DNA of 64,000 nucleotides, taken from positions 207,390,001-207,454,000 of the forward strand of contig OZ024743.1 in assembly GCA_964016885.1 (NCBI GenBank), read 5' to 3'. Shown in pieces: positions 8,984-24,097 of the stretch. Origin of the DNA: Eledone cirrhosa (lineage: Eukaryota). The notes beneath the pieces were generated by a model, which worked only from the letters and a program-made list of their open reading frames with translations, did not search any database and was not told the DNA's origin. A program made the translations under genes and the position numbers. How positions within the stretch are numbered: the first letter of the stretch is position 1; each line of letters begins with the position of its first letter.

Positions 8984-9096
8984 ATAACCAGAAACTGATC
9001 TTGTTCATTGTGCTTCCGGTTTGCTTGGCTGTCGTGGCATTTATTGTGGTGGCCATTTTAGTACGTTGCTTTCGGAGAAGAAAAGCAGCAACGCAG
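8984..9096 (+). CDS. Host gene exon: transmembrane helix plus basic stop-transfer
   Basis: Acceptor ttttcctcttatgtttcag (8983); NQKLILFIVLPVCLAVVAFIVVAILVRCFRRRKAATQ; donor CAG|gttgaa; starts phase 1, ends phase 0. Confidence 0.85.
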
Positions 9097-9569
9097 GTTG
9101 AATATTTTTTGTTGTTTCGATTAATGTATGAACAAGAGGATGATGTAGTTTGCTTGACACATCGTGTAAAATGTAGAAATTAGTGTTTTATTAGAAGGCT
9201 ACCATAATGCAAAAGGGATAGTAATTGTTAAAATATAACAAAGATGTTGCGATGTTATCTTACACTTGTTTAATGATCCTTCTATTTTATGATAAGATCC
9301 TTTTAGTAAAGAATAATTGAAGAAACTAATTTAAAAATGTCAGCGCATTCCTCCATTATTCTTTTAATGAAATTATTTTATCCCAAAATATGGGGACCAT
9401 TAAACAACTCCAAGGTAACATCTTATCATGTTTGTTATTATATTTTTATATTTTTAGCCTTCTAATAAAACCCTATTTTCTAATGTATGAATGTATGTAT
9501 GTAAAGGGGGTTATACAAAGGAATGAGGAGGAGGGCTATGCTCTGGGGGAGAAATTGTAATTGCATTAT

Positions 9570-10015
9570 ATTGGTAGAGCACTAGACACCATGCTTCACG
9601 GCATAGAGTTACAGCCCTTTACGTTCTGATTTCAAATAATGCTGAGGTTAGCTTTGCCTTTCATCCTTACGGGTTGGATAAAATAAAGTACCAGTAAGCA
9701 CTGGGGAGATTTAATCGACCCCCCCCCCCCGAAAAAAACAATTGCTGGCCTTGTGCCTAAAGTAGAAACAATTATTAATATATAATCGCAATATTCGAGG
9801 GCAGTTGATCAGCAGAATCATGAGTACATCAAATGAAGTATATTGTAATATTTCCTTATGGCCTTATGTTCTAAGTTCAAATCTAACAAAGGTGAACTTT
9901 GTGTTTCATCCTTTCAGAGTTGATAAAATATAGTACTAGTCAAATACTGGGGTTGATTTAATTGACTTTCTACTCCCCACCAGATTTACAAGCCTTATGT
10001 CTATATAGAAATCAT
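9570..10015 (+). mobile_element. Two SINE family 1 copies (one younger, one degenerate)
   Basis: Same core as 4904-5092 at about 9570-9775 and 9800-10015. Confidence 0.75.
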
Positions 10016-10092
10016 TATTGTGTATACATTTTTGGGAACACCCTGTATAAATATATATATGTATGTATGTATGTATGTATGTATGTATGTAT

Positions 10093-10625
10093 ATGTCGGG
10101 TCACTCTTAAGTGCTACTGGTAACATGTAACCCAGTACAATCTGTCGCATGGTCGGGTCGTCGGCGACTAAACCAGCAACCCCATCAAGTTTACTTGGTG
10201 AGGAGCATGATTTTGGACACCCTGCAGGACGAAAAACAAAACCTGACAAAGGACGGAAGAAATCATAAGAGTCAACGGCCATCCAAAAGTTTGTAAATAT
10301 GTATATAGACATGTACCGCGCGGTTAAACCACTGGGAGTGAAGGACCCTAGCCTTTGGCAGGGTATTCTTCTAGGAGAAGGCAACTCAGGAAACTGGGAT
10401 AACTCCGATATAAAACCTGCGGCTCAGTAGTTACTGATGATGTTGATCTCTTCTTCTTTTCGGGTTATAGCTACTGTGGCTCAGGGAGTGGGATTGGCTC
10501 AGTGCACAGTCTTTCCCCACTTTAAAAAATATCTTCACGCACAGGCATTGCACGATAGAATTAATTAATAATTATTATTAATGGTATATCGTGCAATGGC
10601 CATACTCGATAACGAGGGGGCAGCA
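10093..10625 (+). mobile_element. Unclassified ~530-bp interspersed element, copy 1
   Basis: Colinear with the reverse complement of 62817-63430; 12-bp hairpin cattgcacgata/tatcgtgcaatg near the 3' end; (tatg)n immediately upstream. Confidence 0.8.
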
Positions 10626-20660: not shown

Positions 20661-23412
20661 TATATATATATATATACTTTGGGAGTGTCATGCTGCCAGT
20701 AAAAACACATGCGCCTGTTGGATTTCACTTCAATTTATTATTATAGTTTCCCAGTCAGTTTATTTAATAACTGGATGGTTGTTTAGTTGTTGATTGTCAT
20801 CAAAGCTCTTTTGTCACACATACTGTGACCACCTCAGTGACTATTTGTGTTGTTATTTCGTGTCTCTCCTTTGTTCTGTCTCACACCATCTTATTTTTGT
20901 GAGCTGTGTACTTGGACTGTGCATGTGTGATATCTGGGTTTGTGTGTGTATGTGTGTGTGTGTTTATTTATTTAATTTTTGAAATATATATTTTTTTGTT
21001 TATTTATACATTTATTTTATTTATTTTCTCTCATTCCTTGTCATTACTTGGTTACTTGTTCTATCTGTGTGGGTCTGGTTTATTTCATTAGTTTAGTTCT
21101 TGTATGTCTTTATATATCCTTAGTTACTACGTTGTGGGGTTGTTGCTATTCTACTTGTGCTTTCTATTTAGTTTTGGTCAGAGTTCGTTTATGTTTGTCA
21201 CTTCAGTAATCTGCCAGAACATAGCATCTGTTCAGTGTGTGGATATAATTTTTATCTCGATGTTCTTCAGTGAGTTCCTATGTTCTATTATGGCATGTTA
21301 GTGGAGTACTGATGATTTTTTCTCAACTTGGAGTACTCACAGGTTAAGCCCACAAATTAACTGTAAAACTGGGAATGTAGTATATAGCATAAGATGCATG
21401 GAGGGTCAGTGTTGGAATAGGAACAAGACATACTTAGGTGGCCCATAGCATAGGAGAAAGGATAAAAGAACACTGGCAAGAATTCCAATACACTAGTTCA
21501 AACTTGCAGAGAGTATATCTCTCTTCTTACATATATGTATCTATATAGTGAAAAAGCAACAGACATATATAGGACAGAGAGAGAAGGAGAGAGAGAGATG
21601 GAATGATGGACAGCCAACAGAAAAATACATTTTTTTCTCATAACTTTCTTAATAATGTATATTTTGCAGTGAGACTTTTTCAAAGGTGCAGATACCAAAT
21701 ATGTTGATAAAGTTAATACAAAAAATTTGATATTTTCACTTGTGGAAACTGCTGATTTTAAAACAAAGGATTATCAACTTTTATTTATAAAAGACAACTT
21801 GTTTATTTAAACACAATTTATATAATAAATATGATTTAAGAAAAAGATAAAAATATGCACACACACACACACATACTCCTCTTACATTCCAACCTCTTCA
21901 TTCTCCAAATTTTGTTTTTTCCTCATGTAGGACTAATGTTTGAGACATTGAAACATTCTTATTTCTTTTTTCGACAAGTGTGAAATTAATAAGATTTTGT
22001 ATAATTCTATTTCTTTGTTTGTCTAGTTTATTTTGAAATATGATAATGAAAATTATTGTGTGCAGTGTTCAGGTGCACTACAACTCATCAAGAGTGCATG
22101 TATAGTACATAGAATAATAATAATCATCATCATCATCATTGAATGTGTGTTATTTTGGTTCGAGTTTTGCCACCTGTTGCCCGTCTCTGGCATGTTTTAT
22201 TTGGAAATTATTTCTAGATATTGTAAAGTCAAACACTTTGAGTTTACAAAAGAAACTGCCATAAATTTCTGGCTCTCAGGGCCGGTTTTCTTTTCTTTTT
22301 ATTGGAAATTATTTTCAAAATGCCATCAAATTTGGTGGTGAAAATTAACAACATGAGGAGGAGAGGGATTGCAGGCTGTGCCTTTCTCTCCCTCAATAGC
22401 AGCCATTTTCTGACATTGACAGTGGCAGTCACTACTCACATGACCAACACTACTGCCAGAATAACAGCAAAGACTAACACTAGGAGAAATAAAACAAAAC
22501 AAAAGGACCAAAATGAAAATCTGTTTTTTGGTGTTTTTTTAACACAAAAGAAAATACATGTTTGATGAAAACAGATGAAATCAATATAACCGACACCACC
22601 ACCACGACCACCACCACCACAACAACAACACTAACGATACCATCACCACCACCATGATCACAACAACAATAAATGTGAGAGATCACAGCTCTGATACTAT
22701 GACATCACACAGAGAAATCACAGCACCAAAACTATGGACATGTGGTTAGAATGTCTCAGGAAAGAATTGCTGGACAGATTTTACAGGCAAAACCAATAGG
22801 TAGGAGAGCCAGGGGTAGACCCTGAACAAGATGGTTGGATTACATCCATGAGCTCGGCTGGTCACGCTTGGGGATCCAGCTGGATCAGTTGGAAACGGTT
22901 ACTTCTGACAGGACATTCTGGAAGGAGTGTTTGAGGACTCTGCCCTCATGACCCTCTCAGAAATAAGTGGGTGAAGAAGAAGTTATTATCGATTCTGTAT
23001 ATTCTGGATTCCCATGCTGCCTTCTCTCACCAGAAAAAAAACAAAAACATTTTGATAGGTGCTGCGACTGACAGAAAGAATCAGCAATGGGAAGACTAAT
23101 AGAAACACAGTTTCCTTGGTCCACTCTAACGATCTGCCCTTTTCTTCTTTGTATATCATAAAAAAAACAGAGGTGGTTTCAGGTGGGTGGGTTGGCATCT
23201 AAAGAGATAAAAGAAAATTTGTCTTGCACGTCCAGTCAAAAGACATCCTTATAAAATTTGTTTTTGAGATCTATCTCTCCTTTATTAACCATTCCCTTAT
23301 TCTGTGTGTTATATAATCCTACATTCTAGAATACTTCCTTCTAATATTCCTAACAGTGAAGACTCTAGATTTTAGAAGATTCCTTAGTATTATATTCTCA
23401 TCTGTTTTGTAG

Positions 23413-23592
23413 ATTTCTCAACAATATGTGAAGTACTGCAAACCTATGTACCCCAGTCCCCTAAGGAAATCCACCTTGAAAAGGGAGAGTTCTTAAAAGT
23501 TGTTGAGAAAGACTCCAATGGGTGGTGCCGAGGGGTGATGGGCACAAATATTGGCTGGTTTCCAGGCAGTTTCGTCAAAGAGATTAGAACAG
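23413..23592 (+). CDS. Host gene exon: SH3 domain (absent from the ORF track)
   Basis: Acceptor tctgttttgtag, donor CAG|gtaaat, 180 nt, phase 1-1; DFSTICEVLQTYVPQSPKEIHLEKGEFLKVVEKDSNGWCRGVMGTNIGWFPGSFVKEIRT fits the SH3 pattern (..Y.....E..L..G....V......GW..G.....GWFP..FV). Confidence 0.92.
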
Positions 23593-24068
23593 GTAAATTA
23601 TAAATACTCATAATGTATGGTTGATGCATGCATTTTGTTTGTGCAATGTTTTATTAACAAGTCTTGCCTGCAAGAATATGGAATGGTAAAACTGCTACAG
23701 CTTCTCAATCATATCTGCAACTAATTCACAATATATTAACTGGTTTTGTACCCTGGGGTCGGGCTGCCTATGCTCTGAATTCAAATCCTGCTGAGGTCAA
23801 CTTTGCCTTTTATCCTTTCGGGGTTGATAAAAAAAAAAATAAAAAAAAATACCAGTCTAGAACTGGGGTCAATTCTTTCTTATTTCCTCTCTATCACACT
23901 CCCTCCTCTGGAAGAAATCAGCTGTGTTCAGACCTGGAGAGAGGATGAGCTTCGCCAGGTTTTAAAAAAATACCCAAAAGATGTGTACATCATTACAGAG
24001 CCTCTAAAGATCCATCACGAGTGACAGGTCTACACATTTATACATAGTTTTTACTGCTTCTTTTTCAG

Positions 24069-24097
24069 CATATCGAGCATGGCCACTCCCCAAATAG
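24069..24097 (+). CDS. Probable last coding exon of the host gene
   Basis: Strong acceptor tttttactgcttctttttcag; phase 1 gives AYRAWPLPK-TAG. Confidence 0.65.

Follow-up and report, generated by a model that had tools for sequence, protein, structure and literature searches.

A coleoid membrane protein with a cytoplasmic SH3 domain and a DCC P1-like juxtamembrane motif belongs to an apparently uncharacterised molluscan family

The stretch of Eledone cirrhosa DNA analysed here (64,000 nucleotides, hereafter the window) carries part of a gene which, judged by sequence comparison, represents, in coleoids, an uncharacterised protein family whose members cross the membrane once and carry SH3 domains on the cytoplasmic side (the TM-SH3 family). 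Conservation of the family extends across molluscs and probably to a hemichordate, and it is apparently unstudied. We consider it about 60% probable that the protein acts as a membrane-tethered scaffold, comparable to yeast Fus1, rather than as a ligand-binding receptor. The DLW motif of the octopod members fits a MAPK docking site of the DCC class.

Results

Exon structure and splicing

The features of the locus, within the window and elsewhere on scaffold C4, are as follows.

8984-9096 (113 nt), plus strand: transmembrane (TM) exon, encoding a single hydrophobic helix and then basic RRRK
14959-15073 (115 nt), plus strand: PDLWIHH exon, carrying the juxtamembrane motif RRVIPDLWIHHSQ; the donor in use is 15073
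23413-23592 (180 nt), plus strand: SH3 exon, phase 1-1, a cassette that is included or skipped
24069-24097, plus strand: rejected fourth exon, intronic sequence just before the 240-bp element
24114-24353: 240-bp element with 18-nt inverted ends, adjoining the rejected fourth exon
33217-33416: 200-N scaffold gap inside intron 3, a likely mis-join parting the gene halves
C4:207,212,178-207,212,361: 184-nt upstream exon, outside the window, ~187 kb upstream of the TM exon
C4:173,591,855-173,592,030 (176 nt; L023): exon after the SH3 exon, encoding ASLIE... and the RVSSF motif
C4:173,676,595-173,677,626 (1032 nt; L025): tail exon, encoding the disordered Pro/Thr-rich tail with RPTRPAPPPPPSRKP

The TM, PDLWIHH and SH3 exons are real. 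A preliminary description of the window had proposed these three exons with GT-AG sites and matching phases, and their AG/GT borders, their phases (1|0, 0|1 and 1|1, respectively), homologous proteins and a spliced contig from run X5 all agree with it. The X5 contig, which matches the genome with 0 mismatches over 181 nt, joins donor 15073 to 23413, so that of the two donors previously put forward 15073 was retained and 15046 was dropped; the loose 5' end of this contig corresponds to 15044-15072, and all contigs used for splicing showed GT-AG borders at the splice joints. The joint between the TM and P1-like exons (9096-14959) is based on homologous proteins: the TM exon is 90% identical to Octopus proteins, single database chains from Argonauta, Octopus vulgaris and O. 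bimaculoides contain TM, PDLWIHH and SH3 together, and an O. sinensis protein holds PDLWIHH and SH3 in one chain. These one-chain homologues, the X5 contig and a Pfam match to SH3_2 (E=1.9e-12) uphold the earlier view of one gene whose product spans the membrane once and carries its own SH3 domain on the cytoplasmic side.

The fourth exon and the short tail of the preliminary description did not survive. In 4/4 runs the loose 3' end of the SH3 exon was the start of the ASLIE... exon (C4:173,591,855) in place of the proposed junction 23592-24069; no contig in these runs linked 24069-24097 to the SH3 exon, and the peptide of that exon was found in no homologue. A single open frame of 599 aa runs over six exons, giving a tail of ~510 aa, of which 402 aa come after the SH3 exon. 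Repeat depth is very high from 24114 on, and the small depth seen at 24051-24124 in runs X5 and X2 is probably repeat-derived.

As a cassette, the SH3 exon is left out of some isoforms in relatives (P0005, P0011, P0012 and P0013); coleoids possess a conserved on/off splice switch for this domain. The symmetric 1-1 phase had been read as a mark of exon shuffling, but use as a cassette explains it better; since the SH3 domain is common to bivalves, gastropods and probably a hemichordate, any shuffling would, on this distribution, be ancient.

The predicted model of P0003 comprises a TM helix (pLDDT >80) and the SH3 domain, with all other sequence disordered and pLDDT low after the helix. The tail contains 18 S/T-P sites and only 4 Tyr. 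Among solved structures the SH3 domain is nearest to those of CD2AP/CIN85 and Nck; the octopod domain reads VLQTY and lacks the first aromatic residue of the ALYDY motif of SH3 domains, so its ligand may be atypical.

A family of SH3-bearing membrane proteins

An exhaustive profile search recovered the family from bivalves, gastropods and cephalopods, together with a probable orthologue from a hemichordate (an acorn worm), which lacks both DLW and RVSSF. Family members display a Ser/Thr-rich ectodomain that has no signal peptide, then one TM, an invariant [DE]LW close behind the membrane, between one and four SH3 domains, and proline-rich stretches; the Eledone protein shares the TM, the [DE]LW 13-18 residues past the basic patch, the SH3 domain and the [VI][ST]SF motif. 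Invariant in 18/18 aligned proteins are D48, L49, W50, the SH3 core and S166-F167, and C32 beside the TM, a possible palmitoylation site, is nearly so. The ectodomains of 16 non-coleoid members consist of 28-43% Ser+Thr, with no Cys in 13 of the 16, and 15 of the 16 have no hydrophobic N-terminal stretch. Among 4 coleoid and 16 other family proteins or fragments, Pfam detected no Ig, FN3 or catalytic domain; coiled-coil, EH and DH domains were also absent from the family proteins scanned.

Three or four SH3 domains are found in 18/20 non-coleoid members, and coleoids retain only the first. Neither 4 coleoid proteins nor 230 kb covering introns and the 3' flank yielded an SH3-2, SH3-3 or terminal SH3-4 (top score 7.5 bits); as an alternative to loss, a multi-SH3 paralogue possibly lies elsewhere in the Eledone cirrhosa genome. 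In an SH3 tree built on few columns, SH3-1 did not form one clade (7% of bootstrap trees). Atlas searches gave scores of 0.85 and 0.87 to a molluscan cluster, which we treat as leads only.

The architecture is unusual, as had been proposed: our searches of the literature found no characterised animal single-pass membrane protein with its own cytoplasmic SH3 domain, and we know of none. Misleading automatic names such as serine-rich adhesin, intersectin-like and mucin-2-like hide the family.

The juxtamembrane motif and its likeness to DCC P1

The preliminary description had equated PDLWIHH with the P1 motif of DCC. In octopods the likeness stands, with PDLWIHH.Q identical in 8/9 residues to P1 of Eledone cirrhosa's own DCC, but the part kept family-wide is DLW only and not IHH (HH in 3/24 members, I in 4/24), and the Neogenin_C model scored 14.7 bits on the motif (E=0.029), below the Pfam cut-off of 25, with no match at E<=1 to whole proteins. 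It is possible, though we think it rather unlikely, that the likeness beyond DLW is chance, with DLW binding some unrelated partner, such as an adaptor for coats or sorting, and the protein acting as a scaffold in trafficking or at adhesion sites, unconnected to netrin or MAPK signalling. The confinement of IHH to octopods, the fact that the finding was picked out for its match, the invariance of D, L and W but not of the basic spacing, and the resemblance of the SH3 domain to those of the endocytic adaptors CD2AP/CIN85 all agree with chance. Conversely, from octopods to more distant Logan species (PDLWIRH) the motif hardly changes whereas its flanks drift, and the joint chance of P..IHH under non-coleoid column frequencies is ~2.5e-6, a naive figure that treats columns as independent and is uncorrected for selection of the match.

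As judged from sequence and exon structure, the gene is very probably not a DCC/Frazzled netrin receptor. That it is nonetheless a divergent paralogue, which lost the Ig/FN3 ectodomain and gained SH3 exons at an origin going back to early bilaterians, strikes us as improbable. The near-identity to P1, the position of both motifs shortly after a TM, the P at -1 in 8/24 members (one of which reads PDLWVH), a phi-x-S-F motif downstream, like WIRS in DCC, and a case of DCC P1 exon fragments being mobilised in this genome (L046) would fit such a descent; the absence of Ig/FN3 and P3, the subthreshold Neogenin_C score and a hemichordate member without DLW do not. A genome search for P1 and P3 placed both on C2, where the true, separate DCC lies, and a fragment on C3, none at the TM-SH3 gene. 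The exon holding P1 has phases 2/1 in DCC versus 0/1 here, with the motif at a different position in the exon, and, once DLW is set aside, the 17 non-coleoid motifs do not exceed shuffled flanks in their likeness to DCC (p=0.14). Of the six codons with a synonymous choice, four differ from DCC, which argues against a recent copy; gene conversion from DCC was likewise rejected, as codons and exon borders differ. The divergent receptor of the preliminary description was therefore set aside.

Candidate docking motifs

The DCC-class pattern consists of a basic residue, a hydrophobic residue or Pro, two residues and then phi-x-phi, in a disordered cytoplasmic region. Octopod RRVIPDLWI fits it in its basic residues, I-x-x-L-x-I spacing, proline and predicted disordered cytoplasmic setting. 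The full pattern occurs in 4/24 sequences and a generic D-motif in 14/24; a basic stretch behind a TM would be expected in any case. The invariant W falls at a position left free by the docking consensus, so that a protein other than ERK may be the family's actual partner. We took PDB 3o71 as support for docking of this class; the ERK2-DCC structure was reportedly described by Ma et al. in 2010. The class itself is defined by DCC residues 1144-1155 (PMC4670726). The WIRS string is (FMWYIL)-x-(T/S)-F (PMC8209697), and its strict form is found in 7/24 members (the I form) and not in octopods, which read V-S-S-F with V in first place.

A putative membrane-tethered scaffold

As a scaffold, the protein would insert N-terminus-out without a cleaved signal peptide, its short Ser/Thr-rich ectodomain being glycosylated and serving as a spacer or sorting signal. 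The disordered tail would offer the invariant [DE]LW to a conserved partner, and in octopods the DLW motif could also give ERK a docking point from which to phosphorylate the 18 S/T-P sites; RVSSF may be a kinase site or a WIRS-like site, and the PxxP motifs may bind outside SH3 adaptors or the protein's own SH3. Depending on whether the SH3 exon is spliced in, the protein would either present an SH3 domain or act only as a ligand, at membrane sites connected with actin or endocytosis. Overall it would likely serve as a cell-surface hub on which signalling and cytoskeletal proteins assemble.

Single-pass membrane proteins bearing a cytoplasmic SH3 do occur in fungi: two papers describe Saccharomyces cerevisiae Fus1 as an O-glycosylated single-pass plasma-membrane protein whose long cytoplasmic tail carries an SH3 domain and a proline-rich region, and which is retained by a multiprotein scaffold (PMC2063912, PMC3718343). 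Fus1 is a precedent for the architecture only, with no homology implied beyond the SH3 domain; it has one C-terminal SH3, versus one to four in the TM-SH3 family with the first near the membrane, and functions in yeast cell fusion.

With DCC, neogenin and Frazzled the family shares a TM followed by a PDLWIHH-type motif (in octopods) and a disordered tail carrying phi-x-S-F and PxxP motifs, but it has SH3 domain(s) of its own and lacks the FN3 domains that would bind netrin in the DCC class. The vertebrate transmembrane adaptors LAT, PAG, SIT and their kin combine a short ectodomain without signal peptide, one TM, a Cys beside it and a long disordered motif-bearing tail, a layout that the TM-SH3 protein resembles, down to C32; they signal via many phospho-Tyr motifs and have no SH3, in contrast to the Tyr-poor, SH3-bearing tail described here. 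The tandem SH3 domains followed by proline-rich regions in non-coleoid members recall CD2AP/CIN85 (also the best SH3 structural matches), intersectin and Tuba/DNMBP, which are however soluble and carry the coiled-coil, EH or DH domains that the family lacks. This multi-SH3 likeness is the source of names such as 'intersectin-1-like'.

A broader proposal, which we regard as speculative and distinctly unlikely, is that this is a bilaterian family of mucin-tipped SH3 membrane scaffolds that escaped attention since model animals seem not to have it. Coleoids would have dropped three of the SH3 domains, turned the remaining one into a splice switch and arrived by convergence at the DCC P1 sequence; the protein would then recruit or compete for P1 partners (ERK, UNC5, translation factors) yet leave netrin unbound, as a cephalopod-specific modulator of guidance signalling. 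The family offers a natural series in which to look for the binding partner of the DLW core of DCC P1.

The 5' end and the split on scaffold C4

The N-terminus of Argonauta P0001 matched the 184-nt upstream exon by tblastn (52.5% over 59 aa, E=7e-9). Its predicted joint to the TM exon keeps an open frame, with a phase-1 donor, and the exon encodes ~61 aa of short ectodomain with an NVT sequon. This exon was all that tblastn returned: no downstream exon within the window and no Ig/FN3 exon in 400 kb upstream, where long open frames were repeats and transposons only (short divergent exons could escape). The exon has no in-frame AUG, no start codon was found in the gene as assembled, and the 5' end is incomplete in this genome. 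A 56-kb C/A-rich array just upstream was considered as a giant mucin exon and rejected: its Thr frame switches 18 times, and long frames arise trivially in DNA lacking T/G.

The SH3 exon and its spliced partner lie 33.8 Mb apart on C4. Most likely the scaffold is mis-ordered and divides the gene halves, because both sides of the split end at 200-N gaps; moreover, 196 nt after the window gap match the 200 nt immediately preceding the gap at C4:173,561,916 (95.6% over 203). A real rearrangement with trans-splicing or exon scrambling is hardly credible: in the assembly exons 4-5 do precede exons 0-3 on one strand, with near-identical LINE copies beside both breakpoints, but the outer flanks of the gaps overlap each other by ~200 nt and the gene is one annotated locus in relatives. 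The gene marks a probable scaffolding error on C4.

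Gene structure and scaffold order

The window (G000:C4:207,390,001-207,454,000, part of a 3.0-Gb genome) holds three exons whose canonical borders and compatible phases, established by sequence inspection, bear out the corresponding part of the preliminary description. The third encodes an SH3 domain, as had been proposed (Pfam E=1.9e-12), and the second matches Neogenin_C below threshold (14.7 bits vs a Pfam cut-off of 25). Querying with the SH3 exon returned four proteins from 11 candidates at 82-92% identity (Argonauta, O. vulgaris, O. bimaculoides and one protein from Logan), homologues that mark this genome as an octopod's, and in all four the SH3 is followed by ASLIE...RVSSF and then a long Pro/Thr-rich tail, instead of the AYRAWPLPK ending previously drawn as a fourth exon. 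These tail exons were not found inside the window and lie far upstream on the same scaffold.

Exons and gaps of the gene region (C4, assembly G000)
window 8984-9096: TM exon
window 14959-15073: exon 2, encoding PDLWIHH
window 23413-23592: SH3 exon
window 33,217-33,416: scaffold gap of 200 N
C4:207,212,178-207,212,361: further exon, ~187 kb 5' of the TM exon
C4:173,561,916-173,562,115: gap, 29.7 kb before the distant ASLIE exon
C4:173,591,855-173,592,030, same strand as the window exons: ASLIE tail exon, 33.8 Mb upstream
C4:173,676,595-173,677,626, same strand as the window exons: Pro/Thr-rich tail exon, 33.8 Mb upstream

Eight sequencing runs were listed (two studies, none recorded as RNA), six of which were used for contigs, and the SH3 exon was covered by one contig in each of four runs. 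The contig of run X5 matches this exon with 0 mismatches; its 5' loose end equals the end of exon 2, so that of the two donors proposed for the junction with 23413 (15046 and 15073) it is 15073 that is used, and its 3' loose end equals the 29 nt with which the distant exon at C4:173,591,855 begins. X5 may stem from the assembly's own project and thus not be independent of this genome; the contig is spliced nonetheless. Three runs from another organism gave homologous loose ends on their SH3-exon contigs.

The simple reading of the 33.8-Mb exon separation is that the scaffold is mis-ordered. The sequence after the window gap overlaps that before the gap at C4:173,561,916 (95.6% over 203 nt); by their flanks, the two gaps suggest that the 33.9-Mb block between them is mis-ordered. 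A mis-ordered scaffold of this kind would give intron 3 a length of 39 kb or more. Copies of a LINE with 99.2% identity across 1460 nt are found close to each gap.

Together, the six exons form a single open frame of 599 aa, of which 402 aa follow the SH3 exon, and the short tail formerly described is thereby overturned. This frame has no in-frame AUG ahead of the SH3; the N-terminus would be supplied by an unseen exon spliced to the phase-0 acceptor, or by a near-cognate start.

The SH3 exon as a cassette

Isoforms skipping the SH3 are recorded in O. bimaculoides, O. sinensis and a Logan species (P0005, P0011, P0012, P0013), and in the Eledone gene skipping preserves the frame. The X5, X1 and X2 contigs are 239 nt long (30+180+29), and assembly-graph geometry suggests that their ends are the exact branch points of inclusion and skipping paths; the X3 and X4 contigs run through the SH3-exon ends.

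A family of transmembrane SH3 proteins

An exhaustive profile search gave 566 matches at E<=0.001, the best 150 of which were examined, and members were chosen by a hydropathy and motif scan over 160 proteins for a TM followed by SH3. Nine of ten candidates checked by name were bivalve or gastropod (Sinanodonta, Argopecten, Gigantopelta, Haliotis, Batillaria, Pomacea, Patella, Lymnaea, Elysia); a second check added oysters and identified P0105 as a protein of the hemichordate Ptychodera flava. The non-coleoid layout comprises a Ser/Thr-rich ectodomain, TM, basic patch, [DE]LW, SH3-1, [VI][ST]SF, SH3-2, SH3-3 and R-x-AP-x-PP motifs, with an SH3-4 frequently closing the chain; 20 such members carry four SH3 domains (11), three (7), two (1) or one (1).

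Coleoid members have one SH3, and no further SH3 turned up across 230 kb of the Eledone gene's introns plus 3' flank. Flanking motifs place the single coleoid domain as SH3-1; by profile score alone SH3-1 and SH3-3 cannot be told apart (61.9 vs 60.1 bits). P0105 combines an ectodomain of 24 aa and a TM with four SH3 domains that correspond to those of the molluscs in the same order. In a tree of only 62 columns, the molluscan groups take in its SH3-4 and SH3-3 (support 100/96 and 97/86) and, weakly, its SH3-2 (87/70), and its SH3-1 joins the coleoid SH3 (95/85). As weak evidence, the layout was absent from vertebrates, insects and nematodes among the named matches (41 of 8000 candidates, most profile matches carrying no name).

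P0056 (571 aa) has a differing ectodomain, one TM and three SH3 domains, the third grouping with family SH3-3, and may be a more distant, early-branching member. Forms without a TM (P0006, P0011, P0082, P0172-P0182; O. sinensis models and oyster-type Logan proteins) may be incomplete models, or else soluble isoforms produced when the TM exon is skipped or another start is used.

RefSeq/GenBank list the family proteins as uncharacterised or give them automatic names. In the accessible literature no published work was found under locus or accession names or as transmembrane SH3 protein, though omics supplementary tables may list these genes; of the papers found on mollusc TM/SH3 proteins none, judged by title or opening of the abstract, deals with the family. 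The Eledone gene belongs to an animal family of putative TM-SH3 scaffolds, apparently undescribed so far.

The likeness to DCC P1

The gene is real, its 3' end was wrongly drawn, and it is not DCC: the true Eledone DCC/Frazzled, with P1 and P3 (Fra motifs as defined in PMC2843715), sits on C2.

DCC/Frazzled motif exons
G000:C2:100,698,957-100,699,139 (L045): P1 exon, phases 2/1
G000:C2:100,756,773-100,756,847 (L047): P3 exon

PDLWIHH is kept in orthologues only in part, D, L and W being invariant across the family (18/18 aligned), with HH in 3/24 and I in 4/24 sequences (near-duplicates included), all coleoid. MAPKs dock on DCC P1 (PDB 3o71; PMC4370755; PMC4670726), a type of site that appears in the ELM class list of PMC5753338; UNC5 and translation factors bind P1 as well (PMC5843272). 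The octopod sequence fits this docking pattern, a fit not shared across the family (4/24). Functional convergence on a P1-type partner is given a probability of about 0.45. Chance likeness beyond DLW takes what this and common descent leave. Non-coleoid flanks are no more similar to DCC than shuffles (p=0.14), yet the naive chance of P..IHH under non-coleoid column frequencies is 2.5e-6, uncorrected for the choice of this finding by its match. Common descent of the octopod motif with Eledone DCC P1 is improbable, even with 8/9 residues equal.

Elsewhere, at L046 (G000:C3:295,748,415-295,748,519), the DCC P1 exon recurs in a shortened and slightly diverged form, joined to reverse-transcriptase sequence of LINE type, which marks it as a mobilised exon fragment.

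Predicted scaffold function

In the fold predicted for the O. bimaculoides protein, a TM helix and a confidently modelled SH3 stand out from an otherwise disordered chain (mean pLDDT 54.5). Because no catalytic or ligand-binding domain is present, the predicted parts would be those of a scaffold. The closest solved SH3 relatives are CD2AP/CIN85 and Nck, and the protein also holds class I and class II PxxP patterns, 18 S/T-P sites, RVSSF and DLW; these, with the SH3, would serve as scaffold elements. The octopod RVSSF does not match the WIRS string (PMC8209697), whose context in DCC is treated in bioRxiv 2022.10.13.511954. Among published architectures, that of yeast Fus1 comes closest (PMC2063912; PMC3718343).

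Repeats and neighbouring elements

A satellite rich in C and A (90% A+C) and built on triplets runs for 56 kb upstream of the window (C4 ~207,154,900-207,211,200) and ends ~1 kb ahead of the exon at C4:207,212,178; it reads as Thr/Asn or Pro repeats, switching frame 18 times. Window 24114-24353 is a MITE-like element of high copy number whose inverted ends match perfectly over 18 nt; similar sequence lies near 15160-15390. A frameshifted LINE occupies 41034-46120 (minus strand), with an ORF1-like frame at 44795-46120 (no Pfam match) and an endonuclease-RT ORF2 in pieces. Several broken LINE copies, of RTE type and others, carry RT and PHD-like zinc fingers at 28323-32015, 48135-51881 and 60073-62482.
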